The notes beneath the pieces are model-generated. The model was given only the letters and a program-made list of their open reading frames with translations, was not told the origin of the DNA and ran no database searches. A program made the translations under genes and the position numbers. Positions 4,172-54,873 of a stretch of 64,000 nt of DNA are shown here, piece by piece (the stretch's first letter is position 1; every line of letters starts with the position of its first letter). This stretch comes from Squalus acanthias (taxonomy: Eukaryota): the NCBI GenBank assembly GCA_030390025.1, contig CM059432.1, positions 73,658,001 to 73,722,000 of the forward strand. Direction: 5' to 3'.

Positions 4172-5870
4172 TGTGTAAAGTTTCGCAATTATCGCGATTC
4201 GAAATAACGAGATAGAAGCAGATTCGTTTGATCAGTTTATTTAAACGAAATGCCGTCATGATTAAACAGGACACAGAAGCCTGTAAAATGGCCGCCGCGC
4301 ATCGTGGCAGAAGTTTCCAGAAGTACAGTGGGCAGACAAGATGGCGTTCGAATAAACATTTTCGATAAGCACTGATAAAGACAGGATGCAACCTGTTTGC
4401 ATTTGTGACAATAGCAAAAGATATGAGTGCTGGAATCGTTTTCCATGCACAAGTAAGGACCATTGTACTGGGCAATCGAAGGCCCATCCAGACACATCAA
4501 TACGCAAATACCCCCACGGCTCTACAATGAGAGAGCCATTCTCGGGTGATTAAACAAGTATTCGGGGGCCCCCAAAACCCAGCCAGGGAGGCTCCGAGCC
4601 GGTTCAACAATGGGGAAAACATTAACGGGTAGTTGGCCAGTCTCAGGTGCTACCGAAACCCGTTAAAGACAAGAATCACCCATGCTGGGAGTTTTGAGCG
4701 CCAATATTTCACAAAGGACAAACATTAAGATTTGAGTGGGAGATAAGGGAACATAGCACTATAACTATAGACAACAAATGTCCATCGCGCTCTTATTTTC
4801 TCTTATCTCGGCTGATGCTCTTGATTTGACCCTTATTCGCTTGATTCGTGCTCTTGTTTCTCTGGACTGTTGACTCTGGACTTTTAGCCGCACTGGACGG
4901 TTATTCGAATGTTGGGTGGAGCTCAATCGGGGCGAGCCACCTCGACGAAGGGCGAGTAACCGGGTGCACCATCCCGAGTGTCGGTAAACGGTGTTTTGGA
5001 CCCGAAGGCCCAAAGAGACGAGACGAGACGAGATGAGAAGAGAAGAAGAAGAATCCACGTGCCGCCGCGGTCAGTAAACCCCGACCGCGCCGAATTTATA
5101 CGAACTCTATCAGTTACTGCACGAACTGGTCATAGACTCTTCCTCGAATTTTATCGACAACTGGTGTCGATACAGGAAGACTCTTCTTTGAATTCTACCG
5201 GCAACTGGTGTCGGTCCAGGAAGACTTTTCTTTGAGTTCTACAGCCGGGCCCGAGCACTGTCGAGTTCTTCATGACAACAGGGAGCCCAGCCTGCTTGCA
5301 GCAGCAGCGAAGATAAACAAGTGGGGTACAGAGACCCCTCAAAACACGTGACAGTCAGGCGCTGCAGCGAAACGAGCCGAGCGCCTCACTTTAAAATTCT
5401 CCGAAGTATCACGAGTGATGAGCATGTTTCCCGATCCTCCAAATCTAGATGTAGTGTAGGTATTGATAAGGGAGGGTGGTTTTATTAAGGATAAAGTATA
5501 ATGTGTTCCCCTTTTTACGATGTGCCGTGCGTTCTTCATTACCATAGACCAAGCTTTATGAATGTATGCATACTTGTACTCTCGTTAATTTGCGCCTATG
5601 ACATGTACTTCATGATTTTGGACGCTATGCAATAAAGATTTCCATTTCATACTATTCAACCGGGTCTATTTTGAGTTTTTCTCTGCATTACTGCTCTCGC
5701 ACCTAAGTCCAGTGTTAGAACCATAAGGGCGAGTGGGTCGAACCACTCACAGGTGCTTATTGCAACAAGGCTGGCCGGAGACCAGAGCAAGCAATAGTAT
5801 TAGGCAACGAAGGCCTAACCCCGCACCAGCACCGTCTGCGATACAAGCACGACACAAAACCCCTTACACA
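4172..5870 (+). repeat. 5' LTR (~1699 bp) of the provirus
   Basis: Starts TGTGTAA (4172) and ends TTACACA (5870), a 7-bp inverted repeat. AATAAA at 5631. Followed after AAA by a TGG-starting PBS. No second copy in the window, so the 5' boundary rests on the inverted repeat and the switch from Harbinger sequence. Confidence 0.75.
5631..5636 (+). promoter_or_regulatory. LTR polyadenylation signal
   Basis: AATAAA ~235 nt before the LTR end, followed by T-rich sequence. Confidence 0.6.
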
Positions 5871-5873
5871 AAA

Positions 5874-5890
5874 TGGCGACCGCGGCAGGA
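5874..5890 (+). promoter_or_regulatory. Primer binding site, tRNA-Ser-like
   Basis: TGGCGACCGCGGCAGGA, 3 nt after the LTR end. TGGCG....CGGCAGGA resembles the complement of vertebrate tRNA-Ser 3' ends; isoacceptor not determined. Confidence 0.7.
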
Positions 5891-5944
5891 CTCTGGCAGC
5901 GAGAGAGTAATATTTTAGACCCTGGTGTGAATAGGCGAAATGTG

Positions 5945-7695
5945 ATGGATGAGAGGGTAGCCGACTATGTGTTTGGGAAGGTTAACTTAACCAAAAGGTG
6001 GATAAGTGACCTACTGATGGATAAGCGTCCGCTAGACGCAGCCATCAAATGGACAGGCAGTAAAGAGCATAAGAAGTCGGTAGAGAAAGCGGTCTGGCTG
6101 ATGTGCTACAAGAAGCAAGTCCAACTTTCGGACCAGGTCATTGTGGCACAGGCAGCTCAGATCAGGGATTTGGAGGTTGAGATGGAGGAAAAGATCGCGG
6201 GAGGACAGAAACTCATTGCATCCTTGAATGCGTTACATCAGGAACGCCAGATAGTAGCCAACCACCATGAGGCTAAAATTGATTACCTAGAGTGTCAGGT
6301 CACGGAAGCGAAATTAAACGAGGGTAGGATTAGAGAACGGTGTGCCCGCCTAGCTAACCAGATAAAAGCCCAGGAAGAAAGCTTGAAGGGAGTTAGGGCG
6401 GCATATAAGATGGCCCTCGAGGATAGGCATGAGGGAGTCGACCACAGTGTTTGCCAGAAGGAGTTAGGGAACCTAAGAGAGGCCCTGAATAAGGCAAACG
6501 GCTTGGTGTGCCTCATCAGCCCGTCAGCAAACCAGCCACAGGTGGGTAGGGAATTCCCAAAATCCCTACCAGACAAAGCAGAGGAGGTATTTGCCACTGC
6601 GCCCTCCGCGCCACCCAGCTATTCGGCAACCTGGGTAAGGGAGGAAGTGGTGGAAATAGAGAAGGAGGTTCCCGAGGCAGGACAATCCCCAGAGGTAGAG
6701 TCGAAACCGGGACCGATGTGTCCGCTCCAAGGTCACAAGAGAGGCCCGAATGGGGAAAATGGGGAGGACGGGGATGTCCTGAACCAGCTGGTATTGCCTC
6801 ACAGCTCACACCAGCTGAGAGCAATGATTAGCCATGTACGGAAGCTGTCCGAGTCAGACGACCCTTCCGTACACTTTAGGGAGGTAGAACAGACCGCAGC
6901 AATTAATGGCTGCGACAATGTGGAAAAGACCAAAATGTTGCTGTTCTCGTTAGATAGCTCGATCCTTCAGTGTCTATCAGACGAGAGCAAGAAGGGGAAT
7001 AAAACTTATGAGGAGTTACGGGACGAGGCCCTAGAAGTGTTAGGGGCGGATGACGAAGGTCCGTTCGTCAGATTGAGTCAAACCATACAGATGGAGGGAG
7101 AACCCCCGAAGGTTTTTGTCAGCAGGCTGTGGCCAGTATACCAGCGTAGCTGCCCAGGTGCGCCAGCGCGCCACCGCCTGGACGGTGCCTGTTTAACTCA
7201 TTGGCTCAGGTGTTTAGTAGCCAACAGTTTGCCAGCCGTCAGGGAGCAGGCCAAAGCGTGGTTTGATCCCACTAACCCCGCCACAACAGAGGAGTCGGTC
7301 CGAAATCGACTCACGATAGGGTATCGGAACACTAGGAGCACGGGAGCGCGTCCCCTTAAGGGAAAGGTGCATGAGGCACGGCCCGCAGCCCCGGCTCAAA
7401 AGGAGTGGCATCAGGAGGGAAACCGCACCCCACAAGCCAATGGTGCTTGTTACGGGTGCGGGAAGACAGGTCACTGGCGTAAGAACTGTAGGAACCCCTG
7501 GAAGGACTCCAGGGATAAAAATCCCGCAGCCCGAACCCAAGCGCCTGTCTCTGAGAGAGGAGCTGGTGTGCCAATAATCCCGATGCGATAGAATCAATGT
7601 TGGGAGCTATGCGGTCCCTTATGATTTCACCAGGAAGGGTGGCAGTCGCTACCGGCCTCACAGAGGCCACAACCCCGTCCACCGGTACCCAATGA
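5945..7695 (+). pseudogene. gag: Gag polyprotein; probable single frameshift at 7555-7589
   Basis: ORF 5873-7591, but its first ATG overlaps the PBS, so 5945 is the likelier start. Coiled-coil N-half, PSAPPSY, capsid-like region, CYGCGKTGHWRKNC zinc knuckle. The pol frame is open 7555-7692 up to TGA at 7693, suggesting the original gag end. Confidence 0.85.
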
Positions 7696-10600
7696 CTAGA
7701 GCCCGCGCAGCCCGTTTACCTCAGCTATGATGCGTGGAAAAGACCCCTGGTTGAGATGGAGGTAGAGAAGCAGAAGGGTAGTTATTTGTTGGACACGGGA
7801 GCTTCATGCACCGTGATTCATACGGATAGCCCCTTTGACTCACCGCTGTCTACCAAGGTCCCATACACATTAGCGGGGTTCACGGGAAAAGAGCAGGCTG
7901 GCGCGTTCTCCATTCCGCTCTCCATTCATTTAGGAGCACTCCACACCACATGGAAGTGCATACTGATGAAATGGCAAGAGGGGGGTGGCAGAGGTATCCT
8001 CGGATCGGATCTCCTATCGGAACACGGGATCCTCGTGGACCTTAGGAATCACTGTCTCTGGGGAGCCAAGGGTGGGAAAGGCAAGGTAGTTGTAATCCCG
8101 GGGAAGGAAGGTAAAGGGGCCCTGTGTACCATGAAGCCATCCGGAGGTTACGACCTCGGGCTTATGGTCGCGGATGTCCCAACGGACATGCAGACGTACG
8201 TGTCAGATAATATGCACGCGTTTGCAACCCACAAGCACGATTGTGGGAGGGTTACCAGGTTTGAGGTCAGCGTAGATGGGGACCCCATAACCCGGCCCCA
8301 AAAACAGTATAACTTCCCCAAAGAAGCAGAACCCGATATGGAGACAGCAATGTCCTCATTGGTGCAGCAGGGCGTGTTGAGGCCGATAGCCACACACGTG
8401 AACTCCCCATTATGGCCGGTGAGGAAGCCGGATAATTCGTGGAGGGCCACGGTGGACTACAGAGTCCTTAACAGTAACATCCCCGCCTGCGCGCCCACAG
8501 TAGCAGCAGTTGCTGACCTAATAGGGAGTATCCCAGCGTCCGCGACCACGTTCACGGTGCTGGATATCTCGAACGGTTTTTGGTCCATCCCGCTGCGGCG
8601 AGAGGACCAGTACAAGTTTGCCTTTACTTTCAAAGGACAACAGTACACATGGAACTGTTTGCCACAGGGTTTCCACAACAGCCCCAGTATTTTCCATCAG
8701 TGTATGGCAGGAAGTTTAAAGGAGTTTAGTCAGCCCAATCAGATAGTACAGTACGTGGATGATTTGCTCCTGTTCACGGGCTCAAGGGAGGAGCATGGAC
8801 CACTGCTAGCCGAGTTATTGGAGCTGCTAGCGAGGAAGGGTTTTAAAGTTAACCCTAAGAAAGCACGTATCGGTCAGCAAGAAGTAAAATTCCTAGGTCT
8901 GACCATTCGCGCTGGGGAAAGAGCCATAGATAAGGCTAGGAGGGAGTCGGTGCAGGAGTTACCAATTCCCAACACCATAACGGGTGTGAGGTCCTTTCTG
9001 GGACTGACCGGTTACTGTAGAGACTTCATCGAGGACTATGCGGCCACAGCAGCTCCGCTGCTCCGACTCCTCCATAAGGGAGTGGAGTGGTCTTGGGACG
9101 AGGGTTGCCAGGCTGCATTCGAGAAGTTAAAAAGGGATTTGCAGACCGCGCCAGCTTTAGGGGCCATAGATGGGGGGAAGGAGTTTTTCCTGGAGGTAGC
9201 TGCCAGCGGAGACAGCTTGAGCGCTGTGCTGCTCCAAGAGCGTCACGGCAAGCTGAGGCCGGTTGTCTATTCGTCCAGGGTGTTAACGGATGTGGAGAGG
9301 AGTTTCTCCAATTGCGAAAGGCATCTTTTAGCCACGCATTGGGCTGTGAAAAGATCAGTGATCTTCACAGGGCTCTCTCCCATCACTCTCCTCACCCATC
9401 ACATGCCAACTAAGATGCTTCTAGATGGGAGGATTAAGGATGGGACCGTAAGCAGCGCTCGTATTGCGCGCTGGACCCTTCTCCTTTCCCAGATGGATCT
9501 TAGAGTTAAAGGTCTTTGCGAGCCCAGGCTTGCGGCCAACTTGGTATACCCCGGAACAGCCCACCGGTGTTCGGTGGAAGGGGTGTGGGAGGTCAACATA
9601 GGTTTACGGGCCGGGATACATCCCACAGGTCGCGAGATTTATGTTGATGGTTCCAGCACAGTGTCCGCTGGCGAACGACTCACAGGGTGTGGAGTTTATG
9701 ACCCTGCGGCAGACCTTGCCCTGGCAATTAAACTCCCCAGCACCATGAGCGCACAGCAGGCTGAGCTGTCTGCGGTGGCGTACATCGTTAACCACCCAGA
9801 AATTTTCCCAACCCCATACACGATTTGTTCGGACAGTATGTTTACGTGCAATTCGTGTACGGAATACCTGGCCATTTGGTCCCGCCGTGGATACACCTCC
9901 GTGGACGGGCGACCTTTAACGGTGAAGCCCTTGCTGGAAAAGATCCTAGCAGCAGTAGGGGAGGAAGGGGAGATTTTCATCCATAAGGTGAAAGCTCACT
10001 CCTCCACAGAGCCCCGCGGGGAGGGCAACCAGCAGGCGGATGCGCTAGCCAGGGAGGGTGCCCGCAACGGCATTTTCTGGGACCCCTATGGACCCGGACC
10101 CGTGGCAGCAATCCAAGGCAGGGAAGGGAATCCCGGGAACACCAGGGTAGCACTGCCCCTAGACCTTAAGACCGTCCAGAACCAGGATCCCGCCCTAAAA
10201 GCAGTTCTCAGGACAATTACTGAGGGCAAGCAGGTAGAGGGCCCGTACAGTACGGCAACCCTCTCCGTTAAAGAAGGCATGCTGTTCCGCGAGGAACAGT
10301 GGGTTGTGCCGCAGCAGCACAGGAGGGAATTCCTCCAGTTGGCTCATGAGGGGCCGGGGGCAGGACACCCCGGGCCCGAGGTTACCTGGCAACGGGTAGA
10401 GCAGGCGGGATGGTGGCCGGGACTCAGGGAGCAGGTCCGCGAGTTCTGTGCAAACTGTCTTGTGTGCGCTGCAAACAACCCATACCCCCAGAAAAGGAAA
10501 GTGCACATGGGGCACATCAGGAGGGTGGAGGGACCATGGCAGTCGATACAGATCGATTACATAGGGCCCCTGCCCACCACCCAGGGAGGCTACAAATACT

Positions 10601-12177
10601 GCCTCGTCTTGGTGGATGTGTTTTCCAAATGGGTAGAAGCCTTCCCCTGTAGAACAGCTACGGCGCTGGGTACTGCTAAGATCTTGGTCCGGGAAGTGTT
10701 CTCGCGGTGGGGACTCCCCCGTTTTGTGGAGTCAGACCAAGGGAGTCATTTCACCGGCCAGGTGATGCAGAGCACCCTCATGCTTTTGGGCATTGAAGGG
10801 AAGTGGCACGTAGCGCACAATCCCCAGTCATCAGGGATTGTTGAACGCATGAACCGGACCCTAAAGGAGAAGCTGAGGAAAGAGACTATGAACTCACCCC
10901 AAAAATGGGCGGAGGTTCTGCCTCTAGTCCTCATGGGGATCCGGGCCAGTCAGTCGAAAAGTACGGGGTACTCCCCGTACGAGGTGATGACTGGTAGGAT
11001 CATGCGAACCCCCACCCATGTACTAGCCCCGGTGCTCACTGAGGGTCAGCTCCAAGAGGTGAAAAGGGACAAGTTTGTCCAGACCCTCTTGGAGCGCCTG
11101 AAGCAGGTTTACGAGCAGGCAGCTGGGAACATGGGAAGACAGCATCAGGGCAATCGCCTGTTGCTGGAACCCCGCAAGAAGCAGGAGTGGGAAGTCAGAG
11201 ATCAGGTCATGGTTAGGAACTATGCCAGAGTAGGGAGTTTGGAACCACTGTATATGGGACCCTACAGTATTGTAGATAAAGCGAGTCCCATGGTGTACGC
11301 CGTAAAGGTACCTCGGCGCACGAAATGGTTCCACATTAACCAGTGCAAGCTGTATAAGCCGGGTGCACAGGGGCCAACCACAGGGGCCAAAACTGCGAGT
11401 GGGGACTCGCAGCCCCGGGTAGGACCGCAGGGCACACAGACCGGTAAAGCAGCCTGCGAGAGGGGAGAGGACATTCTAGAAAGGTGTAGGATCTTTTCTT
11501 GGTGTTGGGATTCAGATGAGGAAGAGCTCGAGGAGCTCGACCAAGGTAGTGACCTGATCGGAGAGGTGCTGGGGTCGGAGGACGGAAGTTTCGTCCTCGA
11601 CTCAAGCTCAGGGGAGATAGGGGCTGCGAGTGGAGATCCACACAGGGTGGAATCAGAAACTGCAGATCCCGAGCCCAGGGGGGCGGAGCTAGGGGAGACG
11701 GAGCCAGCGGCTGTGGAAGGACCACAGGTCGTGACGGTGGAAGTCTCGGTACCCGGTCCGTCGGCCCTGGAAGTCTTGCCCTTGGGGGAGGTAGGGATTG
11801 CGAGTGGAGGACCACATACTGGGCCAAGTAGGGTGGAGCCAGAAACTGCAAATCCCGAGTTCAGGGGGGCGGAGCCAGGGGAGACGGAGCCAGCGGCTGT
11901 GGTGGGACCACAGGCCGTGACGGTGGAAGTCTTGGTTCCTGGTCCGTCGGCCCTGGAAATCTTGCCCAATGTAGCCCTCCGTAGGTCAAGTCAGACACCC
12001 CAGCCCAGGAAGTCGTGGTCAAGTCCCCCGTACGCCCCCAGGCGTAAGTTCAAGGTCAAGGCAACCCAGGGAGATCCCAGTCCCAGCGCAGCAGCGACAG
12101 GCTGCGGCAGATCAAAGGAAGGGGTCAGTGCCCTCCCACCACTGGGAAAAGCTCGTGGCAGCCTTCACAGAATTTAG
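7696..12177 (+). CDS. pol: Pol polyprotein: aspartic protease, RT, tether (degenerate RNase H), RNase H, integrase, long C-terminal extension
   Basis: LLDTGAS protease; LDISNGFW, LPQGF, YVDD RT motifs; FLEVAASGDSLSAVLLQ tether; IYVDGSS..AQQAEL..SDS..KVKAH..GNQQADALA RNase H; H-x6-H...CLVC zinc finger; QIDYIG, SDQGSHF, GIVERMN integrase; GPY module. No internal stops. Confidence 0.95.
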   Translation, partial: LEPAQPVYLSYDAWKRPLVEMEVEKQKGSYLLDTGASCTVIHTDSPFDSPLSTKVPYTLAGFTGKEQAGAFSIPLSIHLGALHTTWKCILMKWQEGGGRGILGSDLLSEHGILVDLRNHCLWGAKGGKGKVVVIPGKEGKGALCTMKPSGGYDLGLMVADVPTDMQTYVSDNMHAFATHKHDCGRVTRFEVSVDGDPITRPQKQYNFPKEAEPDMETAMSSLVQQGVLRPIATHVNSPLWPVRKPDNSWRATVDYRVLNSNIPACAPTVAAVADLIGSIPASATTFTVLDISNGFWSIPLRREDQYKFAFTFKGQQYTWNCLPQGFHNSPSIFHQCMAGSLKEFSQPNQIVQYVDDLLLFTGSREEHGPLLAELLELLARKGFKVNPKKARIGQQEVKFLGLTIRAGERAIDKARRESVQELPIPNTITGVRSFLGLTGYCRDFIEDYAATAAPLLRLLHKGVEWSWDEGCQAAFEKLKRDLQTAPALGAIDGGKEFFLEVAASGDSLSAVLLQERHGKLRPVVYSSRVLTDVERSFSNCERHLLATHWAVKRSVIFTGLSPITLLTHHMPTKMLLDGRIKDGTVSSARIARWTLLLSQMDLRVKGLCEPRLAANLVYPGTAHRCSVEGVWEVNIGLRAGIHPTGREIYVDGSSTVSAGERLTGCGVYDPAADLALAIKLPSTMSAQQAELSAVAYIVNHPEIFPTPYTICSDSMFTCNSCTEYLAIWSRRGYTSVDGRPLTVKPLLEKILAAVGEEGEIFIHKVKAHSSTEPRGEGNQQADALAREGARNGIFWDPYGPGPVAAIQGREGNPGNTRVALPLDLKTVQNQDPALKAVLRTITEGKQVEGPYSTATLSVKEGMLFREEQWVVPQQHRREFLQLAHEGPGAGHPGPEVTWQRVEQAGWWPGLREQVREFCANCLVCAANNPYPQKRKVHMGHIRRVEGPWQSIQIDYIGPLPTTQGGYKYCLVLVDVFSKWVEAFPCRTATALGTAKILVREVFSRWGLPRFVESDQGSHFTGQVMQSTLMLLGIEGKWHVAHNPQSSGIVERMNRTLKEKLRKETMNSPQKWAEVLPLVLMGIRASQSKSTGYSPYEVMTGRIMRTPTHVLAPVLTEGQLQEVKRDKFVQTLLERLKQVYEQAAGNMGRQHQGNRLLLEPRKKQEWEVRDQVMVRNYARVGSLEPLYMGPYSIVDKASPMVYAVKVPRRTKWFHINQCKLYKPGAQGPTTGAKTASGDSQPRVGPQGTQTGKAACERGEDILERCRIFSWCWDSDEEELEELDQGSDLIGEVLGSEDGSFVLDSSSGEIGAASGDPHRVESETADPEPRGAELGETEPAAVEGPQVVTVEVSVPGPSALEVLPLGEVGIASGGPHTGPSRVEPETANPEFRGAEPGETEPAAVVGPQAVTVEVLVPGPSALEILPNVALRRSSQTPQPRKSWSSPPYAPRRKFKVKATQGDPSPSAAATGCGRSKEGVSALPPLGKARGSLHRI

Positions 12178-12436
12178 GTAGGCCGCCCTGGGAACGGGCG
12201 GCGCTGTACAGTATAAGTTTATAAGTTTAAGTTTGTAAGTTTGGTAAGTTTGCAGTTTAAATTTAATAGTAAATGGTAAAGTGATGGGAGTTAGTGATAG
12301 GAATAGTTAAAGTCTATCCAGCATACATGTCCTTTTACGTGAGACGAGGTCAAGGGACCCGCTCACCCTTCACAAGAGCCAGAGACTCTTGGGAGGCTGG
12401 CTACATCATTTTATCTGATCACAGGAACCAGGAGAT

Positions 12437-13747
12437 ATGGAAAGGATTCTGATAGTGCTCGCAACGATCGGATATCGATTGGCCTATCGGGGCCTCACCA
12501 AGGATGTCGTTGTGTTTGGTTGCTCCGGGGACACGGCCCCCATCGTGACGGATGGGACCGGGGAGCGAAAGGCTGAGGAGACCGCCACTTATTTCCACAA
12601 GGGAAGGTGGCCGGGATGGCTGGGAACGAATTCGACGGAATACTCCAGCGCATCCGGATTTGCCTACAAAGAGACTTCTTTACTGTGCCCCAGAGTGAGG
12701 ATCATTGCACCCAGGATCAGCGTCACCGTCGGCAAAAGGATTTGTTTGACCTGCAATGGGAAGGTCCCATTGAGCCGATGGTGGTGGTTACGGAAGTTAA
12801 GCAAGACTATGAGAAATTCCTCGGTTGAGTGGGAGCGATTGGGTAACAATACCCATCGGACAATTACGGGGACTAACGGACAATTGAAAGTCTGTTGGGA
12901 CAAATGGTGGGAACCGGATGAGGGACTATATGTTTGTATGTGGGGATCGAAATACGTTTGCCCCAAGGGTATATCCATATTTTTCGTACACCAGTGGCAG
13001 GATAACGGGAAAGGGATGAGGTGGGATGTCAGCACAAAGGGGTGCGGAGCTCCATTCTCCCCGATCCCGGTAAACGCCACTGAACTCATCACGCGCCCAC
13101 GCAAGGCTCCGCCCATGATTCCGGTGGTTTTGGCTCAGGAGGAAGGGTGCCCTAAAGCCACTAAGGGGCCCGGGAATGGTTTGGTACTGGTCCCAACAGA
13201 CCAGATACTATTTCAGGGGGTACATTACGCGGTGGCCTCGGTGATTCTAAATCTCACCGAGGTGCGTTTACCAGAGTGGTGCCCCAAAGAGACGGAACAA
13301 TTGTACCAGGTCCTGTTGACAAACATGTTCAGACAATTCTACGAGTTTGATTTTGCAGAGATTGACAAAACAAGCTTGTACACCACACCACACGAAGTTT
13401 TGGGTCAGGTGGGGAGACAGAGAAGGGGCATTGTGAACGATATGTTCACCGCCTTTAATACAGGAACATCTGTGGTCAACGCTCTAGACAACGTGGAGCT
13501 GCAGACCCAGATCAATGGTTTAAAAACACAATTAAAAAGCATCCTCACAAGCGAAAACAAGGTAGTAGGGTCTGAGTTACATGAGGACCAGGCCATGACA
13601 CTACACTTAAAAGAGATTATAGCAGAGCTGGAGAAGCATGCGAGAACGGTAAATGCCCTGATCAGGGAAGATCGGAACGCATCCGATCAAGCTGCGCAGA
13701 ATGAGGTGTGCGTACTATACGGGGCGTGGTTACTGGGCGAGGGCCGC
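12437..13747 (+). pseudogene. env: Envelope glycoprotein (class I fusion type, N-terminal Ig-like domain), C-terminally truncated
   Basis: Splice acceptor ttttatctgatcacag at ~12409-12424 just upstream. Short hydrophobic N-terminus, six N-x-S/T sequons seen, RQRR furin site (13415-13426) followed by GIVNDMFTAF and a long heptad repeat. No TM anchor because the sequence switches to Harbinger DNA. Confidence 0.85.
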
Positions 13748-15013
13748 ACTAACACACTTCCTTCTTTCTTGGAGGAGAAGGTCACACACAACCTGAGACA
13801 GGAGGCTGCTATTGGAGAAGGCTGAGCCTGTCTGTACACTTCTTCCTCATGGAAGAAAGCAGGCTAGCCATTACAGACAGGAGGAGAGTAATGGCTGCGG
13901 TGAGTGGCAATGCTGGAAGAGGCATTACACTGGGTTTCTTCACACCGTATCCTCTTTTTCCCTTGTTCCTTCTATCTCATCCTACACAGTCTGCAGATTG
14001 CCAGTTATGGAAGGGCAGTAAATCAGTTGGCTCTCCTGTTGAGCCAGCCGACAGATTGGGCCTGGGGGTGAGGAGAGGAGCCAATCACGGATGGGGTCAA
14101 GGGCAGACAGCAGCCCACATTATTTTTTTAGAACTGCTGGTTAGGTCGCTCAATACCTGGTGAAAATGGGAGGAATCACTCCACCCAGTTGTACCTGAAA
14201 ACTGCAAACTACAACTAGCGTAGGATCCCTATTTGCATTTTTAAGCAGCCTCCCACTGGAAATAGGCATGTGTGATGCTTGCCCTACAGGCCCACCTGAA
14301 AATTGCATCTGTCGGGCCTTGAGCATCAATGTGACGGCCACGTTCCGCCCACCTCCTCAGTTTTTAGGCGAGAAATGGGGACCGGCAGTTGAAAATCATT
14401 CCCAATCAGTCAATGTGGAAATCTTTGGCAGATTAGTGTGTTTTTGTATTATTTTAAGGAGCCCTCCTGTTCTCTTTCTTATCTGATGATGAAGGTTTGC
14501 ATGAGTCCTTTCCCTGAGAGCATAGGGGGGAATTTTAAACCCCGCGCAGGGCAGAAACATTGCTACAGCCCCTGCACCCCTATTCCTGCCCTGGGTTAAA
14601 ATCGGGGCTGATGTAATTGTATTATAGAGTTAAATAATGGTTGTCTGAGAGGAGTGCAAGTGATTATCAACAGCATTTTGTTTTCTTCAGTTGGAGTGCA
14701 ACCTTTCTACTGGAAATAATTGGTCACAATTTCCTGCTTGTTGTCATATGCTGCTGGCAGTAGGTTGTCCTATGCCACCTCCTCTCTCTCATTGGCACCC
14801 TTGTCATGATCAAGGCATTGGTTGTCTCCACCTTCTTCCTCCTCATCTTTTGCAGTTGGGAGGTCCAATCCATTCTCAACTGCCAAATTCTGGCGCATAC
14901 TGCAAGCCACTACAATTCTTGACACCCTCGTTGGGCTGTCGTACTTCCCTGACCTATTCAGGCAACAGAAGTGGGACTTTAGAATCCCAATGGTGTTGTG
15001 TAGCACTCAATCC

Positions 15014-21780: not shown

Positions 21781-22303
21781 TATGACTCTATGGGGGAAAA
21801 ATTCAGTTGGTTGCGCCTCCCGTTAGCGCCTTAAGAGGGCGCTAATGGGGCGTTAAGGCGCTAACGCCCGGACGCAGCGCTGTTTGCGCCGCTCGAGAAC
21901 TTAACTTGAGATTGTGCGGCGGCGCTAAAACTTACCGCTGCGACCACCTGCGCGCGCAGATTGTGACGTCATTCCATGGTGCAACGCCCTTGGGGCGCCC
22001 CGGAGCGGAAATTGAGTGGCGCCCCCTGCCTTACCGCCTGGCGCTTCCAACGACCGGAAGACTGGAACGTTATCAATCGGTGTGGGGCTGGGGGGGGCGC
22101 TATTTAAAGGGGGCCTCTTCCTGTCTTTTTCTGTGGTCGACATTTATGCACCACTCGTTCTGAGAGAGAGAGAGAGATTCGGAGAGAGAGAGAGAGAGAC
22201 TTCTACATTGACTCAACGCTTTGTGAGGTAGTTTTGCCTAGTTCATCCTAACTTTGCTGCTACTTTAGTTGCTGTACCTCATTACTTTTCTGGCAAAGAG
22301 AAT

Positions 22304-23464
22304 ATGGGGGCTGCAATGATTGGGGGCGTCGTCCTGCTCCAGCTCAATCGGAGGATAGTGAGACGCAGACAGAGAGTGGCAATGATGGCCAGACGGAGGA
22401 GGGCCATCAGGCGCATGTACAGGAGAGCTTACCCTCCCAGGGTATATCGTGAACAGCTCTCCTACATCCATATGTCCGAGGAGCTGTGTTTGCGAAGGCT
22501 GCGATTCAGCAAGGAGGTGGTCACTGAGCTCTGCCACCTGCTGCAGCCAGATCTGCAGCCTCAGCTGAGGTCCAGGACGTCTCTGTCGGTGGCAGTGAAG
22601 GTCACAGTGGCTTTGAACTTCTACGCCACTGGCTCATTCCAAGCTGCTGTTGGGGACCTCGCCAATATCTCCCAGTTTGCGGTGCATCGCTGCATCCGGC
22701 AGGTCACCAATGCCCTCTTCACAAGGAGACGAGACTTCATCTCCTTCCCTATGACCCCAGACAAGCAGCATGACCGTGCTATGGGCTTTGCGAGGGTAGC
22801 GGGCTTCCCCATGGTGCAGGGCGCCATTGACTGCACGCATGTGGCTTTGCGTGCTCCGCGAGAGAATGCAGAGGAGTTCCGGAACAGAAAGGGGTTCCAT
22901 TCCTTGAATGTGCAGTTGGTCTGTGACCACAGACAGGTGATTCTTGCTGTCAATGCCCACTATGCGGGCAGCTGCCACGATGCTTTCATCCTGCGCCAGA
23001 GTACTGTGGCAGAAATTTTCGAGGCACCGCATCAGCCAGTTGGTTGGCTTCTGGGGGACAAGGGGTACGCATTGAGCACCTGGCTGATGACACCGCTCCG
23101 TGCGCCAAACACCCCTGCTGAGCTGCGGTACCAGGAAAGCCAACAAGCAACCAGGAACATTATTGAGCGCACAATCGGCGTGCTGAAACAACGATTCCGC
23201 TGTCTGGACCATTCTGGAGGAGCCCTGCAGTACTCGCCTGAGCAAGTTTCGAAATTCGTAGTCGTGTGCTGCATGTTGCACAACATGGCAATCCTCAGGA
23301 CGCAGCCAATGCCACCAGGCCTTGCAGCACCACAAGAGGAGGAGGAGGAAGAGGAGGAACAGGACGAGGACGATGATCAGCAGCAGCACCAAGGCAGGAG
23401 GGCGGCCCACAATGGTCAAACTGCAAGGGCCGTCCGTCAACGACTAATAGCAAGCCGCTTCTAG
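22304..23464 (+). CDS. PIF/Harbinger DDE transposase, 386 aa, intact
   Basis: GAIDCTHV, NRKGFHSLNVQ, GSCHDAFIL, LLGDKGY, RNIIERTIGVLKQRFRCL, CCMLHN motifs; TATTTAAA at 22100 upstream. Confidence 0.95.
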   Translation: MGAAMIGGVVLLQLNRRIVRRRQRVAMMARRRRAIRRMYRRAYPPRVYREQLSYIHMSEELCLRRLRFSKEVVTELCHLLQPDLQPQLRSRTSLSVAVKVTVALNFYATGSFQAAVGDLANISQFAVHRCIRQVTNALFTRRRDFISFPMTPDKQHDRAMGFARVAGFPMVQGAIDCTHVALRAPRENAEEFRNRKGFHSLNVQLVCDHRQVILAVNAHYAGSCHDAFILRQSTVAEIFEAPHQPVGWLLGDKGYALSTWLMTPLRAPNTPAELRYQESQQATRNIIERTIGVLKQRFRCLDHSGGALQYSPEQVSKFVVVCCMLHNMAILRTQPMPPGLAAPQEEEEEEEEQDEDDDQQQHQGRRAAHNGQTARAVRQRLIASRF

Positions 23465-23758
23465 GGCCCCTGCCATTGCTACAAACACGAATCAACCCAG
23501 CACGCAACCCCTAAGCCGGCCAAGGCACCAATAATTCCAACCACCAGCCATGTATATTTTGAATACAGAAACTTATTTATTGTACAAACTCTGTGTGTGT
23601 CAATTCCTCATGACAAACTCATAGAAATAAACACAAAAAAACAGTCAATAACATAACTGGTTCTCACAACCTGGAGATAATGTCCAAAACACTAAACAAA
23701 AGTTGGGCCATGAACCTCGGCCTTTAATAAAAAAATGACCAGCATTTTGGCACACCTC

Positions 23759-25665
23759 CTACTTTTTGCCCTTCGAGGGTGATCTCCTTCCCTTGCGCAC
23801 TTCCCCCCTTCTAACCCTACTGCTCCTCCGTAATGGGACCTCAGTGGCTGCAGCAAGGCTGGTGGAAGGCTGCTGCTCGTCAGACCCTGACACTGCAGAT
23901 GCCCCTGAAGGACGGCCTCGACCACTTCTGGGCCTGGAGGGCCCGGCTGCAGACTGCACCAACTCTGCATGGGCGGCAGCAGTCTGTCCTACAGGCAGGT
24001 GGCAAGTGCAGTGGAGAAGTGACAGTGTTGGCAGCAGGAATGCTGTCATCGTGAGAGAGGACAGCAACTCCCTGCTCGCCCGACACACTGGCACTCCCAC
24101 GGGGCAGCACTTCAGCATCCGGAGCAATTTGCCGGAGAACAGATTGCTGGCCTGCTGCGGCGCGGTGACAGCCCCGGGGACATGTGCACGAACCATCGAG
24201 GATGGCAGCAGTCAGTGCTCGCGTGGCCTCAATCTGAGTCTGCATGAGAGCAGTCTCAGATGGGTTCCTGGCAGCCAGTGACTGAATTGCAGCACTAAGC
24301 TTTAGTGTGGCATCCGCCTGTGCTACAGCGAAGTGCTCCACACTCCTTGCCAGTGCCTCAATGCATTCAGGCACCCTTCCCACTGCACCCATGAGCTCAG
24401 TGTGCATGCCCACCGCCTGGCTGTTCATTTCTGCAATCAGCCGCTCCTCCTCTGCGTCCATTGCAGTAGGAGTGTCTGGCATACTCTCCCTCTGGGGAGA
24501 AGGCTCCCGTTCTTCCCTCCCCCCTCCATGGCGTTGCTGCAGCCCGCTGGGTCCTGGAGCTTCACCATCATCAGCCCCTTCCCCCCTGCTCCCCCGTTCT
24601 TCCCTCCCCCCCCCATCGCGTTGCTGCAGCCCGCTGGGTCCTGGAGCTTCACCATCATCAGCCCCTTCCCCCCTGCTCCCCTCCGGGGAAGGCGTGTTCC
24701 CAGTGTGGCCATGGGCTTCCTCGGGAGAGGGTGGCACTGATGCTCCGGCTTCCTCTTCCTCCTCAGCTGCAGCATCACTCCCAGTGGCAGCTTCAGGGAC
24801 CATCTCCTCAGCTGGTGAATCACCATCTGAAAGCAGGGAGGTACAAGAGTGGCTTTAGCGTGAGGACAGGGTGGCAGTAAGGGAGGAATAAGTGCAGCGA
24901 GTTAGCAAGTTGGATTGAAAGTGTCAAAGGCTGGTATTGTGAGGGACAAGTGGAAGGACAGAGGACAAAAAGGTGATGACCTTACCATTGCTGTCCACAA
25001 CGGGGTCGGCGTCCCCAGTGGCGACGGGACCGATCACCCGGCTTGCCACAATCCTGTGGACGCGCTCCTCCAGATCGCTGAGGGGTTGCAGCTGAAGCCG
25101 CCCTCCACCCGTCCGTTGCTGCTGTCTCCGATTATGAGCCAGCTTAGCCTGCAAGAAAAAGGACAGCATCTGAGTAAATATACAGCCATGGTCTTGCCTG
25201 ATGTGCCTCCCATAGGTGAATAGCCCTTACAATATGCAGCCATGGTCTTGCCTGATGTGCCTCCCATAGGTGAATAGCCCTTACTGTATGCAAAGTGTGG
25301 AATGTGTGTGTGTGATGAAAGGGCCATAGGTGTTGCATGAGTGTTGTGCATTGGGGTTTTAAGACCCTCTGGCCATATAGTGAGGTTGAGATGGAGGGAT
25401 GGAGAGGTATTGAGAAAAAGCCACTCACCCTGACGACCCGAGTGAGGTCGTTGAATTTTTTGCGGCACTGAACATGGGTCCTGGGCACCATGCTCCTGGA
25501 GGAGACGCTCTGAGCCACCTCCCTCCACACTCTTCTGAACTCGCGTGGCAAAGGCCTCCTGCCACTCTCCGGGAACAGCATGCATCGTCTGCGCTCCACT
25601 GCGCCAACCAGAGCATCCAAGGCCCGCTCGGTGAAGCGATGAGCGCGTTCTCTCACCCTCTCCAT
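23759..25665 (-). pseudogene. Harbinger Myb/SANT-like protein, 3 exons (25665-25429, 25148-24986, 24826-23759), probable frameshift near 24000
   Basis: RAHRFTERALDALV...W.EVA..V....RT..QCRKKFNDL; GT/AG sites intact (phase 0 then 1). The basic tail PLRRSSRVRR lies in another frame beyond ~24000. ~87-bp tandem duplication in exon 3. Confidence 0.85.
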
Positions 25666-26054
25666 GCTTGGCAGCAAAATGGATTACAGGTCTCTCCAGG
25701 CTGAGATTCAAGGCTGCAATGAGCAGGGTGTGGCTGGGGAGCAAGTGGCCCCCCCCCGCTTTAAGAAGTGTCCGGCGCCAGTGTGTCTGTGTTCCCTCGC
25801 TAACTGGCAGCAGCTGCGCTGCGCTCGTGCGCTGAGGTAGCGCCTCACTCCTAGGCCTTTGCGCCTTAAGAGAGGTGTGCAGCGCCTAATTTAGCGCTCC
25901 ACTCACCTCCCGGGGCGGTAAAAGTGAAGTTTCCTGTCAGTGCCGATAATTAGCGCCAGGCGCTAATATTTGCGCTCGGACGATATTTGCGCCCCAAATG
26001 GGGCGCGACCTAATTTCTACCCCTATGTATCATAAACGTGTTTATTCTGGATGG

Positions 26055-33270: not shown

Positions 33271-36200
33271 AAACATAGAAACATAGAAGATAGGAGCAGG
33301 AGTAGGCCGTTCGGCCCCTCGAGCCTGTTCCGCCATTTAATGAGATCATGGCTGATCATCCAAATTCAGTACCCTGTCCCTGCTTTCTCCCCATATCCCT
33401 TGATCCCTTTAGCCTTAAGAAATATATCTAACTCATTCTTGAATATATTTAATGAATTGGCCTCAACTGCCTTCTGTGGTAGAGAATTCCAGAGGTTCAC
33501 CACTCTCTGGGTGAAGAAATTCCTCCTCATTTCTGTCCTAAATGGCTTACCCCTTATCCTTAGACTGTGACCCCTGGTTTTGGACTCCCCCGCCATCGGG
33601 AACATCCTTCCTGCATCTAGTCTGCCTAGTCCTGTTAGAATTTTATAAGTTTCAATGAGATCCCCTCTCATTCTTCGAAACTCTAGCGAATACAAGCCCA
33701 ATCCATCCAATCTCTCTTCATACGTCATTCCTGCCATCCCAGGAATCAGTCTGGTGAATCTTCGCTGCATTCCCTTCGTGGCAAGAACATCCTTCCTCAG
33801 ATAAGGCGACCAAAACTGCACACAATACTCAAGGTGTGGTCTCACCAAGGCCCTGCACAACTGCAGCAAGACATCCTTGCTCCTGTACTCGAATCCTCTC
33901 GCTATGAAGGCCAACATACCATTTGCCTTCTTAACCGCCTGCTGCACCTGCATGCTTACCTTCAGCGACTGGTGCACAAGGACACCCAGGTCTCGTTGCA
34001 CTTCCCCTTTTCCCAATCTATTGCCGTTCAGATAATAATCTGCCTTCCTGTTTTTGCCACCAAAGTGGATAACCTCGCATTTATCCACATTATACTGCAT
34101 CTGCCATGCATCTGCCCAATCACCCAACCTGTCCAAATCATACTGGAGTTTCTCTGCATCCTCCTCACAGCACACACGCCCACCCAGCTTTGTGTCATCT
34201 GCAAACTTGGAGATATTACATCTAGTTCCCTCGTCTAGAACATTAATATATATTGTGAATAACTGGGGTCCAAGGACCAATCCCTGCAGTACCCCACTAG
34301 TCACTGCCTGCCACTCAGAAAAAGACCCGTTTATTCCAACTCTTTGCTTCCTGTCTGCCAACCAGTTCTATATCCAAGTCAGTACCTTACCCCCAATCCC
34401 ATGTGCTTTAACTTTGCACACTAATCTCTTATGCGGGACCTTATCGAAAGCCTTCTGAAAGTCCAAATACAACACATCCACTGGTTCTCCCTTATCTATT
34501 CTATCAGTTACATCCTCAAAAAATTCCAGTAGATTAGTCAAGCATGATTTACCTTTTGTAAATCCATGTTGACTTTGTCCGATCCTGTCACTGTTTTCCA
34601 AGTGCTCTGCTATTACATCTTTTATAATGGACTCTAGCATTTTCCCCACTACCGATGTCAGGCTTACCGGTCTATAATTCCCCATTTTCACTCTACCACC
34701 TTTTTTAAATAGTGGGGTTACATTAGCTACCCTCCAATCAATGGGAACTGTTCCAGAGTCTATAGAATTTTGGAAGATGACCAGCAATGCATCTACTATT
34801 TCTAGGGCCACTTCCTTAAGTACCCTAGGATGTAGATTATCAGGCCCTGGGGATTTATCGGCCTTCAATCCCGTCAATTTCCCGAACATCATTTCCCTAC
34901 AAATACTGATTTCATTCAGTTCCTCCCTCTCATTAGACCCTATGTTCCCCGACACCTCTGGGAGGTTATTTGTGTCCTCCTTTGTGAAGACAGAACCAAA
35001 GTATGTATTTAATTGGTCAGCCATTTCTTTGTTCCCCATTATAAATTCCCCTGATTCTGACTGCAAGGGACCTACGCTTGACTTCACCAATCTTTTTCTC
35101 TTCACATATCTATAGAAGCTTTTACAGTCAGTTTTTATGTTCCCTGAAAGCTTACTCTCATACTCTATTTTCCCCCTCTTAATTAATCCCTTTGTCCTCC
35201 TTTGCTGAATCCTAAACTGCTCCCAATCCTCAGGTTTGCTGCTTTTTCTGGCCAATTTATATGTCCTCTCCTTGGATCTTATGCTATCCCTAATTTCCCT
35301 TGTTAGCCACGGTTGAGTCACCTTTTTTGTTTTATTTTTATGCCAAACCGGGATGAACAAATTCTGTAGTTCATCCATGCGATCTTTAAATGTTTGCCAT
35401 TGCCTATCCACCATCAACCCTTTAAGTAACGTTCCCCAATCCATCCTAGCCAACTCGCGCCTTATACCATCGTAGTTTCCTTTATTTAAATTCAGAACCC
35501 TAGTCTCTGAGTCAACTACTTCACTTTCCATCTTAATGAAGAATTCTATCATATTATGATCGCTCCTCCACAAGGGGCTTCGCACAACAAGATTGCTAAT
35601 TAATCCTTTCTCATTACATAATACCCAGTCTAAGATGGCCTGATCTCTAGTTGGTTCCTCGACATATTGGTCCAGGAAACCATCCCGTATACACTCTAGG
35701 AATTCCTCCTCCACAGTATTGTTACTAATTTGGTTAGCCCAATCTATATGTAGATTAAAGTCACCCATGATAACTGCTGTGCCCTTATTGCACGTGTCTC
35801 TAATTTCCCATTTAATGCCATCCCCAACCTCAGCATTACTGTTTGGGGGTCTGTATACAACTCCCACTAACGTTTTCTGCCCCTTGGTATTTCTCAGCTC
35901 TACCCATACAGATTCCACATCATCAGAGCTAATATCCTTCCTTACTATTGTGTTAATCTCCTCTTTAACCAGCAATGCTACCCCACCTCCTTTTCCTTTT
36001 TGCCTGTCTTTCCTGAATATTGAATACCCCTGGATGTTGAATTCCCAGCCTTGGTCACCCTGGAGCCATGTCTCCATAATCCTAATTATATCATATCCGT
36101 TTACATCTATTTGCGCAGCTAATTCATCCACCTTATTACGAATGCTCCTCGCATTAAGACACAAAGCCTTCAGGCTTGTTTTTTTAACACTCTTCGACCT

Positions 36201-36336
36201 TTTAGAATTAGTATTTACTGTGGCCATGTTTGATTTACACCCTTGATTTCTCTGCCTTCCACTTTTGCTTTTCTCCTTCCTGTCTTTTGCTTCTATCCTT
36301 GTTTCCCTTTCCTCTGTCTCCCTGCACAGGTTCCCA
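33271..36336 (-). mobile_element. CR1 LINE, 5'-truncated, complete ORF2 region
   Basis: (TTTCTATG)n tail at 33271-33288; ORF2 spans 36227-33366. Confidence 0.95.
33366..36227 (-). pseudogene. CR1 ORF2 (AP endonuclease + RT), one in-frame stop at 34368
   Basis: LCLNARS, ETW, GVVYRPP, MGDFN, SDH endonuclease motifs; YRPVSLTS, LDFQKAFD, FADD RT motifs. Confidence 0.95.
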
Positions 36337-36644
36337 ACTGAAGGTTTATAAGGCAGTTGTCCTTACCAATCTCCTGTATAGAAACATAGAAACATAGAAA
36401 ATAGGTGCAGGAGTAGACCATTCGGTCCTTCGAGCCTGCACCGCCATTCAATGCGTTCATGGCTGAACATGCTACCTCAGTACCCCATTCCTGCTTTCTC
36501 GCCATACCCCTTGATACCCCTAGTTGTGAGTATTATATCTAACTCCCTTTTGAATATATTTTGCGAACTGATTCCACAGATTCACCACTCTCTGGGTGAA
36601 GAAGTTCCTCCTCATCTCAGTCTTAAATGGCTTCCCCTTTATCC

Positions 36645-39386: not shown

Positions 39387-39433
39387 ATTACTTCCCCCTG
39401 TTTCACTACATAGGTTCCCATTCCCCTGCCATA

Positions 39434-40440
39434 TTAGTTTAAATCCTCCCGAACTGCCTTAGCAAATATTACCCCGAGGACATCGGTTCCAGTCCTGCCC
39501 AAGTGCAGACCGTCCCTTTTGTACAGGTCCCACTTCCCCCAGAACTGGTTCCAATGCCTCAGGTATTTGAATCCCTCCCTCCTGCACCACTGCTCAAGCC
39601 ACGTATTTAATCTCGCTATCCTGTTCATGCTACTATGATTAGCACGTGGCACTGGTAGCAACCCAGAGATTACTACCTTTGAGGTCCTACTTTTCAATTT
39701 AGCTCCTAGCTCCCTAAATTCTGCTTGTAGGACCTCTTCCCGCTTTTTACCTATATCGTTGGTACCTACATGCACCACCACAGCTGGCTCTTCACCCTCC
39801 CTTTCCAGAATGTTCTGCAGCCGCTCCGAGACATCCTTGACCCTTGCACCAGGGAGGCAACATACCATCCTGGAATCTCAGTTGCGGCCACAGAAACTCC
39901 TGTCTATTCCCCTTACAATTGAGTCCCCTATCACTATAGCTCTACCACTCTTTTTCCCGCCCTGCTGTGCAGCAGAGCCAGCCATGGTGCCATGAACCTG
40001 GCTGCTGGTGCCTTCCCCTGGTAGGTTATTTTGTGATTTCAAATAAAACTGTTGGACTATAACCTGGTGTTGTGCGACCTCTCAAGGTTATTTCCCCCAA
40101 CAGTATCCAAAACGGTATATCTGTTTTGGAGGGAGACGACCGCAGGGGACTCCTGCACTACCTTCCTGATATTGCCCTGCCTCTTGGTCACCCATTTACT
40201 GTCTGACCTAGCCTTTACCCACGGTGTGTTCAACTCACTAAATGAGTAATCCACAAAGTTCTCGGCATCGTGGATGCTCCAGAGTGAGTCCATCCACAGC
40301 TCCAGTGCCGCCATGCGGTCCGTCAGGAGCTGCAGCTGGACGCACTTCCTGCACACATAGTTGTCAGGGACACTTCCAGTGTCCCTGATTTCCCACATAG
40401 CACAGGAGGAGCACGACACGGTTCCGAGATTTCCTGCCAT
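39434..40440 (-). pseudogene. CR1 ORF1: zinc finger/coiled coil plus SGNH esterase, interrupted by a Penelope-like insertion
   Basis: CSSC...CRKC followed by a Leu-rich helix; esterase motifs VIGDS, CLPGA, VHVGTND, DGLHL. Confidence 0.88.
40032..40084 (+). mobile_element. Very short Penelope-like insertion in CR1 ORF1
   Basis: Same tgtgatttcaaataaaactgttggactataacctggtgttgtgcgac core; flanked by AGGTTATTT duplication. Confidence 0.75.
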
Positions 40441-45351: not shown

Positions 45352-46547
45352 TTAAGTAAATCTGGACATTATGTGGCCATCCCAGGACTCCCGGAGAGCA
45401 ATGTGTACTGCTGCTGGTGCCATCTCCACCTCAGGTTCCTCCTCCTCCACATCCTCCGAAGAGGCTCTGCGCTCTGCGCCTTGCTCCTCCTGCATCTCCA
45501 ATCCTTGCTGCTGCGTTATGTTGTGCGGCGCGCAGTAAACAACCATGATTCTGGAGACCCTGGCTGGTGCGTACTGAAGGGCTCCTCCAGATCTGTCAAC
45601 GCATCTGAAGCGCATCTTCATCATGCTGATTGCTTGCTCTATGACACATCTGGTGGACATGTGGCTGTCATTATAACGCTCTTCAGCCTCATTACATGGC
45701 CTCCTCAAGGGTGTCATCATCCACGTCTTCAATGGATAGCCTTTGTCTCCAAGCAGCCAGCCGGCAAGTCTGTTTGGAGGGGCAAAGAGCTGAGGAAGGG
45801 TGGACTGGCGCAGCACAAAAGAGTCATGACAGCTGCCAGGGAATCTGGTGCACACATGCATGATGATCGTTTTATGGTTGCAGACGAGCTGCACATTGAC
45901 AGAGTGGAAGATCTTGCAGTTCACAAACACTCCTGGGTGATCTGCAGGTGCCTTGATGGCCACATGTGTGTAGTTGATGATGTCCTGCACCTGTGGGAAG
46001 CCAGCCAGAGCCACAAAGCCAAGCGTCCGCTCATCAGTGGCAAAGTTCACATAAGTGGCTGACTTGTCAATAATGGCATCAGTCACCTGGGTGATGCAAC
46101 TGTGGGCAGTCGACTGTGAGATCCTGCAAATATCTGCTGCAGATCCCTGAAAGGCTCCTGAGATGAAGAAGTTGAGGGTGGTGGTAGCTTTGGCAGCTAC
46201 TGGTAAGGTGTGCCCACCAGGTCCTCTGGGCAGCAGGTCTTGTTCCAGCAAGCTACAAATGTCTGCGATGACCTGGCATGATAGCCTGAGCCTCCTGAAG
46301 CACTGCTGCTCAGTCATGTCCAGGAAGCTCATCCTCTGCCTGTATACCCTGTGTTGGGGTATCGCCTCCGGCGTGGTGCAGCCCTGTGCTGACCCCCTCT
46401 CTCGTGTGGAGCATCAGGTCATTGAGGAGAAGGCTGCTGTTGTGGTTGTTGCTGCTGCTGCTGCTGGTGTTGCTGGTGTTGTTGGTGCTGGGGCTCATCT
46501 TGGTCCGATTCTGAGGTCCAAGGTGAGACAGCATAAGCAGCACCCAT
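45352..46547 (-). pseudogene. Harbinger transposase, inactivated
   Basis: 326-aa ORF with [24 protein letters not shown]; first catalytic Asp altered (DIINYTHV); N-terminus frameshifted. Confidence 0.9.
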
Positions 46548-54663: not shown

Positions 54664-54873
54664 CCATGATGCGGAGATGCCGGTGTTGGACTGGGGTGGA
54701 CAAAAGTGAGAAGTCGCACAACACCAGGTTATAGTCCAACAGTTTTATTTGAAATCACAAGCTTTCGGAGCTGCTGCCCCTTCGTCAGGTGCACCTGATG
54801 AAGGGGCAGCAGCTCCGAAAGCTTGTGATTTCAAATAAAACTGTTGGACTATAACCTGGTGTTGTGCGACTTC
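54664..54873. mobile_element. Penelope-like insertion with inverted terminal duplication
   Basis: 12-bp TSD CCAATTATATAG (54652-54663, 54874-54885); palindrome 54710-54873 centred on GTGCAC. Confidence 0.85.
54792..54827 (+). ncRNA. Minimal type I hammerhead ribozyme (mirror copy on - strand at 54756-54791)
   Basis: CAC-CUGAUGA-A-GGGGC-AGCA-GCUCC-GAAA-GC-UU-GUG: intact core, stem I CAC/GUG, stem II, palindromic AGCU stem III. Confidence 0.75.

Follow-up and report, generated by a model that had tools for sequence, protein, structure and literature searches.

A truncated provirus of Squalus acanthias from a high-copy, probably snakehead-retrovirus-like family with a likely Ig-V-like domain and F-type fusogen in its envelope

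Snakehead retrovirus (SnRV) has been described as an unclassified orthoretrovirus (PMC12193657), and cartilaginous fish have already yielded SnRV-like endogenous retroviruses (ERVs) (PMC4422223; PMC6001957). The envelope protein (Env) of foamy viruses is related in structure to the fusion (F) protein of paramyxo- and pneumoviruses and has been termed class Ib (PMC11468914). Here we describe an ERV with the order long terminal repeat (LTR)-gag-pol-env, recognised by reading the open reading frames (ORFs) on the plus strand of a 64,000-nucleotide stretch of Squalus acanthias DNA (GCA_030390025.1, contig CM059432.1, positions 73,658,001 to 73,722,000; hereafter the window). We have good confidence that it is a dead, 3'-truncated copy of a high-copy family of canonical Retroviridae, likely class III and SnRV-like, whose env likely joins an Ig-V-like domain to a paramyxovirus-F-type (class Ib) fusogen. 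An earlier note, made from the sequence alone, had read it as a young lokiretrovirus-like provirus.

The window copy is a dead locus. Its gag carries a frameshift near 7575, relative to all eight pol-bearing sister copies compared, and halts at 7591, whereas the gag of the family ends at the TGA at 7693-7695. Its env breaks off after residue 438 of 783, and neither the 3' half of env nor a 3' LTR was found in the window or in the next 19.8 kb; the last 3 kb would have been lost through deletion. This copy can make neither Gag-Pol nor a membrane-anchored Env.

The lokiretrovirus assignment leaned on two RNase H domains in pol. Both are there: a tether that lacks the first catalytic Asp (FLEVAASG) and a second RNase H that keeps the D-E-D-D residues. 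The YVDD motif of the reverse transcriptase (RT) is likewise present in the pol frame, and the catalytic motifs of pol are intact. A dual RNase H is common to all retroviruses and to Odin, so it is not diagnostic. We built three trees: FastTree on 208 RTs, IQ-TREE on 59 RTs and IQ-TREE on 35 rows of RT plus tether, the rows of both IQ-TREE runs being hand-picked from the FastTree result. The lokiretroviruses (Loki) were anchored by the eel proteins P0013 and P0014, which match the Loki-Aro RT by eye (PMC7947760 supplement), and SnRV by P0093, which contains two exact SnRV peptides (same supplement) and agrees at 99% identity with a record of 10,688 nt, the published length of SnRV. The window RT falls inside the canonical Retroviridae (0.996 in FastTree, 100/100 in both IQ-TREE runs), and Loki forms a separate clade (100/100 or 100/99). 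Forced monophyly of the window and Loki, a group named before any tree, costs 72 log units (approximately unbiased (AU) test, p = 0.00058). Class I (gamma/epsilon) rows form their own clade (100/98-99) excluding the window in both IQ-TREE runs. The Loki RT motif PFGY.NS, found in 8 of 9 Loki-clade rows, is absent from the window. Given a non-diagnostic dual RNase H, a missing motif, three concordant placements and the AU rejection, the Loki assignment is wrong: judged by its sequence, the provirus is not a lokiretrovirus, and the family sits inside the canonical Retroviridae, outside class I.

The RT phylogeny that the earlier note had proposed as a check thus puts the element among canonical retroviruses near SnRV, with neither Loki nor Gypsy; a place inside the orthoretroviruses proper does not come out cleanly. 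What stands of a lokiretrovirus in a cartilaginous fish is the retroviral grade and the host, with env homologues in sharks and skate; the lineage does not. Membership of Ty3/Gypsy (Metaviridae, including errantiviruses) was rejected, the RT lying outside Gypsy and there being two RNase H domains, not a single catalytic one. Over the same columns, RT identity is 48-54% to relatives from frog, Xenopus, coelacanth and one unnamed source, 43% to SnRV and 33-39% to five Loki rows. The closest named Pol relatives come from frogs ('NYNRIN-like' by name), Xenopus, coelacanth and turtle, and an alignment of the whole window Pol to that of SnRV has E = 8e-109. The family likely belongs to class III, the snakehead-retrovirus-like group. 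Among viral contigs the window RT had no match. Searched with Loki proteins, the own genome gave this family and its kin alone, at no more than 38% and 44% identity, and no well-preserved Loki, a search that decayed fragments could escape.

With SnRV and the class III ERVs of clade Huo, including lineage I of elephant shark CmiERV, the family has the RT motifs PTVA and PQGFH.SP..FH in common (PMC4422223; PMC6001957). It further resembles SnRV in that gag and pol share one frame, parted by a stop codon that would be read through, in a Gag that has a coiled coil and a single CCHC knuckle, in a TGGCG-type primer-binding site (PBS), in a weakly colinear env with a furin site and in a weak V-set signal at the Env N-terminus. 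The PBS had been called tRNA-Ser-like; the actual site, which the gag ATG at 5873 overlaps, is a perfect 20-nt complement of host tRNA-Arg(TCG), which would prime reverse transcription. The SnRV site is reportedly also that of an arginine tRNA, according to a 1996 paper. Genes for tRNA-Arg(TCG) and tRNA-Ser(GCT) stand in long tandem arrays of 1.62-kb period (L042-L046; contig C26 of genome G000). Across the genome the 3' end of tRNA-Arg has 422 exact matches, so the gene for the primer tRNA is very abundant.

In sister copies gag runs to a TGA and pol follows directly in the same frame. The junction, UGA-CUA-G, is identical in the window and in all five pol-bearing copies read there, and its class is a type II readthrough context (PMC13517186). 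Pol very likely begins through readthrough of this UGA rather than at its first ATG, so that Gag-Pol would be made by stop-codon readthrough. The 120 nt from the UGA contain no stable RNA structure, the folding energy lying above the shuffled mean. The uninterrupted 1473-aa pol of the earlier note is indeed open, over 1493 codons from stop to stop and 1473 from the first ATG, but that ATG is an unlikely start. The family differs from SnRV in its junction (UGA-CUA-G versus UAG-GGC), its tRNA-Arg(TCG), its 1.7-kb LTR with an end 4 nt ahead of the gag ATG, its env (783 aa with a short tail, versus an SnRV env frame of ~1,130 codons), its long Pol tail, its hundreds or more near-identical copies with an enzyme-less subfamily, and in having no 3'ORF-like accessory frame that we could find: there was none in the 398-nt stretch after env in one copy read, and an M-started frame of 70 or more codons occurred in the 3' region of one of six copies. 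Compared with Loki (PMC7947760) and Odin (PMC9040795), the family has the same tether plus RNase H, an N-terminal Gag coiled coil, and a similar tether and integrase, and with Loki also an F-type env layout, whereas RT clade and motifs differ.

Full-length sister copies give the complete order of env: an N-terminal hydrophobic stretch, an Ig-V-like domain (~85-175), a Pro-rich linker, an F2-like segment and RQRR (327-330), followed by the fusion peptide, a long heptad helix, a Cys-rich region, a second helix, a transmembrane (TM) segment (~734-752) and a short tail. The segments named in the earlier note (GLVLVP, RQRR, the heptad region and NEVC) are all present, and the parts follow each other as in F proteins: F2 segment, furin site, fusion peptide, heptad repeat A, Cys-rich domain, heptad repeat B and TM. 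The fusion peptide is weakly hydrophobic (mean hydropathy 0.55). The language-model neighbours of env in the ESM Atlas are Gypsy env, Baculo_F and Fusion_gly (0.93-0.96, with 203-214 shared features; Fusion_gly clusters, 0.93-0.94); the six rows shown are F-type families or unnamed, with no retroviral TM protein among them, and SnRV Env returns the same clusters. Layout and language-model neighbours together make it probable that the envelope core is F-like.

The N-terminal domain does not figure in the earlier note. Profile search against PDB matched it to the IgV of CRTAM (E = 0.0028) and to CD8 alpha (E = 0.046), Pfam gave Ig_3 (E = 0.0078), and Foldseek with a low-confidence env model listed chiefly antibody/Ig V chains (best E = 0.006). 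These three results are weak and agree, and the pattern C-W-D/EG.Y.C is kept in five env homologues, indicating that the domain is likely Ig-V-like. Two other matches of env were discarded, a torovirus-spike match in Foldseek (E = 1e-4; TM-score 0.14, unreliable) and a reovirus sigma-3 profile match (E = 0.004), which disappeared with deeper alignments and was taken as chance. Furin would cut Env at RQRR, the Ig-like domain would bind the receptor and the F-like core would fuse membranes.

A profile built from the envelopes of two families is colinear with SnRV Env over 284 columns, scoring above 60 of 60 shuffles (32 versus a top of 25), and the alignment puts furin site on furin site, weakly. 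The SnRV Env N-terminus contains a weak V-set-like segment (Pfam E = 0.064; L059:6131-6470); the SnRV env core had no match in the genome that contains the window. Close env homologues (58-81%) occur in sawshark (Pristiophorus), catshark (Scyliorhinus) and skate (Rhinoraja). A second family has an env 29% identical in which the layout is preserved, as are most cysteines (10 of the 13 in the core, among them Cys282 and Cys425), and whose membrane-proximal helix has a weak GP41 match (E = 0.009). Two sawshark gene models, P0003 and P0004, annotate this env as joined to host exons of Niban-like or zinc-finger type; they are probably annotation chimeras and possibly real exonisation.

To our knowledge, foamy viruses have no CCHC knuckles in Gag, and foamy Pol is made from its own mRNA; membership of the foamy viruses was rejected on the CCHC knuckle of the family Gag and the in-frame readthrough layout. 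Like a foamy virus, the family would be a canonical retrovirus with a class Ib fusogen (predicted here) and an added binding module; the foamy module lies between the subunits and this one would be N-terminal, another arrangement that PMC11468914 allows. The Loki Env matches PF00523 at 2.2e-7 (PMC7947760), a match that the family env lacks, and Loki-Rca Env shows no N-terminal Ig-like domain by eye, unlike the family env. An IgV-like module at the Env N-terminus is shared with gamma-type Env bearing an IgV receptor-binding domain (bioRxiv 10.1101/2024.03.17.585361); in that case the carrier is a gamma- or alpha-type Env, in this family a predicted core of F type. No paper linking SnRV-type Env to F was found in the literature searched, to which subscription journals mostly did not belong, and a prior mention is possible.

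Several results weigh against an SnRV-like family with an F-type envelope. The trees used LG+G4 without a mixture option, with no foamy, beta or lenti RT knowingly included. A clade of the window with SnRV has 0.984 in FastTree, 60% of bootstraps in the 59-RT tree and 0% in the RT-plus-tether tree; the integrase tree, open at its base, also lacks it. Tether identity is 34-41% to Loki (one row 25%) versus 27% to SnRV, and integrase identity 42-45% versus 36%. For env, phmmer against PDB, profile against PDB and Pfam gave no F-protein match, and two AlphaFold models, alone and with 15 rows, reached a predicted local distance difference test of 33 and 35 and are unusable; the paramyxovirus-F-like env described earlier has the order of parts and F-type Atlas neighbours on its side and no hidden Markov model (HMM) similarity to F. 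The match to SnRV Env lacks significance in the pairwise comparison (E = 0.16), with the first profile (2 of 60 shuffles as high) and in hmmsearch (16 of 1000), and the SnRV Env query in the Atlas had a low recognition value (1613). The lineage data would also fit a canonical lineage that branched early, together with the relatives from frog, Xenopus, turtle and coelacanth, and stands apart from SnRV proper, or a mosaic of canonical RT with tether, integrase and env from the Loki side. Besides the closeness of tether and integrase to Loki, the tether shares the stretch R(I)xDGxVSxxRI..W with Loki-Rca by eye, SnRV leaves the window's group in the RT-plus-tether tree (94/98 with class I and others), and domain swapping has been reported (PMC7947760). 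We regard either version as unlikely: SnRV sits on a long branch in every tree, which makes a low identity to it unsurprising; the integrase tree decides little with an open base; and the type of PBS, the readthrough and the layout of Gag agree with SnRV. By eye, moreover, the env Cys pattern differs from that of Loki-Rca Env.

An ordinary class I envelope (gamma- or epsilon-type, class Ia), whose F-likeness came from generic furin, heptad and transmembrane features, would account for the missing HMM match to F, the unusable models and the GP41 match in the second family. It is distinctly improbable in our view. Some 400 residues, including a Cys-rich beta-like region, separate the fusion peptide from the transmembrane helix, whereas the gamma-type TM protein is short; the CX6CC motif is absent from the env cysteine list; and the Atlas rows point away from retroviral TM. 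Most improbable of all is a true lokiretrovirus, the first from cartilaginous fish, to which the AU rejection, the lack of PFGY.NS and an RT closer to SnRV than to Loki are opposed, although dual RNase H, the F-like env layout and a coiled coil before capsid like the Loki 'smc' would suit it. The six chondrichthyan genomes of the Loki paper found by name bear no Loki mark (PMC7947760), which leaves that niche open.

The own genome (3.7 Gb) was searched at the DNA level with env, giving 40 scored matches at 98-100% from 2,986 candidates, and flanks on both sides were fetched for 20 of the 39 other env copies, all plus-strand matches. These sister copies fix the LTR bounds and expose the abrupt end of the window copy. 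At least 113 near-identical env copies are present in the genome. By hand count of top-scoring matches, which favours intact ones, ~37 of 113 env matches lie inside a 789-codon open frame, and of the 51 matches to pol, 34 belong to frames at least 1,470 codons long; the 12 pol matches checked are 90-95% identical to the window. Env is full-length (777-783 aa) and open in 5 of 20 copies. The two-LTR copies foreseen in the earlier note exist: LTR pairs from 17 of the 20, compared over overlaps of at least 700 nt, differ by 0.35-2.45% substitutions (median 1.33%). With the mammalian rate that the Loki paper applies (PMC7947760), this median gives ~3 Myr; with the 2.2e-10 that PMC4422223 assumes for sharks, it gives ~30 Myr (8-56). 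A very low mutation rate has been measured in sharks (PMC10587355). Whether the family is 'young' hinges on the host clock, and the window copy, with its single LTR, cannot be dated. Seven of the 11 copies read are flanked by an exact target duplication of 4 bp.

The env ratio of nonsynonymous to synonymous differences (pN/pS) is 0.14-0.29 between the window and 12 copies (a simple count, CpG uncorrected, with copies chosen by env similarity) and 0.15-0.26 in six pairs of open copies. Purifying selection on env implies a route of spread that needs env, most simply reinfection; values of ~0.2 suggest that the family spread by infection, and it would have done so through repeated infection of the germ line. 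No env splice joint was found among the matches listed, where contigs of four presumed-RNA runs cover all 30 bins, a result uninformative either way. At least three further families of the same retroviral group are present in the genome (RT 56%, 73% and 78% identical; L063-L076), and that with 56% has an env 29% identical, with a different, Cys-rich N-terminal part. Insertions numbering 100-700 have been reported from the elephant shark, the coelacanth and the lamprey (PMC4977317); the present family shows that an elasmobranch genome can carry very many coding-competent, env-bearing ERV copies.

Among the 20 copies, nine have pol, nine lack the part corresponding to window 7630-11340 or slightly more, and two are rearranged. 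The nine enzyme-less copies (junctions in L021, L025, L026, L028, L031, L032, L035, L037 and L039) share one replacement, with the UGA-CU context unchanged, a handful of pol-like codons and then a coiled coil that, by eye, looks like that of gag. In seven of the nine, the frame after the stop is open to the natural pol end, its length differing in each (297-405 codons); one copy from a related family, whose LTR has diverged, is built likewise (L060:610-1758, 382 codons). Several independent indels have all preserved the frame, which suggests that the tail made by Gag readthrough may matter. The copies would form a non-autonomous subfamily that exchanged its enzymes for a gag-like coiled coil, retained gag, env and the in-frame Pol tail, and would rely on Pol provided in trans for its mobilisation.

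Given the F fold of foamy Env (PMC11468914) and the relation of Loki Env to F (PMC7947760), an F-type env here fits F as an ancestral retroviral envelope and is no mark of Loki. Tentatively, with the scales tipped slightly the other way, we propose that SnRV-like class III viruses, SnRV included, enter by an F-type fusogen with a captured Ig-V receptor-binding domain, that F was ancestral among retroviral envelopes, with gamma/beta-type Env replacing it later, and that the Pol tail is a required accessory protein made through UGA readthrough and kept even without enzymes. Wang and Han left open four scenarios for the origin of retroviral Env; a canonical lineage other than the foamy viruses, if its env is of F type, would speak for an ancestor of that type. 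SnRV grows in fish cell lines, so one solved structure could test this. The Ig-V plus F arrangement, if true, is a fresh case of a host-like domain on a minimal fusogen. The locus itself is a dead copy and does not extend the Loki host range; the interest of the family lies in its probable Ig-V plus F-type envelope and its enzyme-less subfamily.

Table 1. Coordinates of the provirus and its parts in the window
Feature	Position	Strand	Remarks
5' LTR	4174..5868	+	1,695 bp, TGTA...TACA; whole or partial match to the 3' LTR in 19/20 sister copies
TATAA; AATAAA	5497; 5631	+	candidate promoter and polyA signals of the LTR
PBS, tRNA-Arg(TCG)	5874..5893	+	20/20 nt complementary to host tRNA-Arg(TCG) 3' end plus CCA
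gag	5873..7695	+	N-terminal coiled coil, capsid region, one CCHC knuckle (zf-CCHC E 0.0019)
gag/pol junction UGA-CUA-G	7693..7699	+	type II readthrough context
pol, open frame	7696..12177	+	1493 codons from stop to stop
protease	~7735-8028	+	domain search
RT (YVDD)	~8419-8907	+	domain search
tether (RT_RNaseH/RT_RNaseH_2, FLEVAASG)	~9094-9492	+	first catalytic Asp absent
RNase H (second, catalytic)	~9634-10062	+	D-E-D-D residues present
integrase HHCC/DDE	~10306-10824	+	domain search
SH3/GPY	~11227-11355	+	domain search
Pol tail	11356..12174	+	~270 residues, acidic/proline-rich; 138-nt direct repeat 11644-11781 / 11830-11967
env, first 438/783 codons	12437..13752	+	fused at 13752 to unrelated DNA; frame continues to stop at 13825
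Ig-V-like domain of env (likely)	12689..12961	+	residues ~85-175; C..W..D/E-G-x-Y-x-C pattern
F-like core (probable), N-terminal part	13148..13752	+	F2-like strand and helix (Cys282), RQRR, fusion peptide, heptad helix, Cys425
furin site RQRR	13415-13426	+	weakly hydrophobic fusion peptide begins 13427; Cys425 at 13709

An Rfam search of the window returned nothing. Elsewhere in it, a 410-codon ORF at 22232-23464 (+), which resembles a Harbinger/PIF DDE transposase, has opposite-strand ORFs beside it (stretch 22232-25885), and a similar ORF lies at 45352-46413 (-). Two head-to-tail copies of a long interspersed nuclear element (LINE), presumably CR1-like by their motifs, occupy 33366-39458 (-); they encode endonuclease plus RT, are ~80% alike and include one 937-codon open frame, and a further LINE fragment is found at 53323-54108. 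A near-perfect palindrome at 54704-54879, with 88-nt arms that are 97% complementary and have no spacer, is built from a repeat end that recurs at 30494 and 40019.

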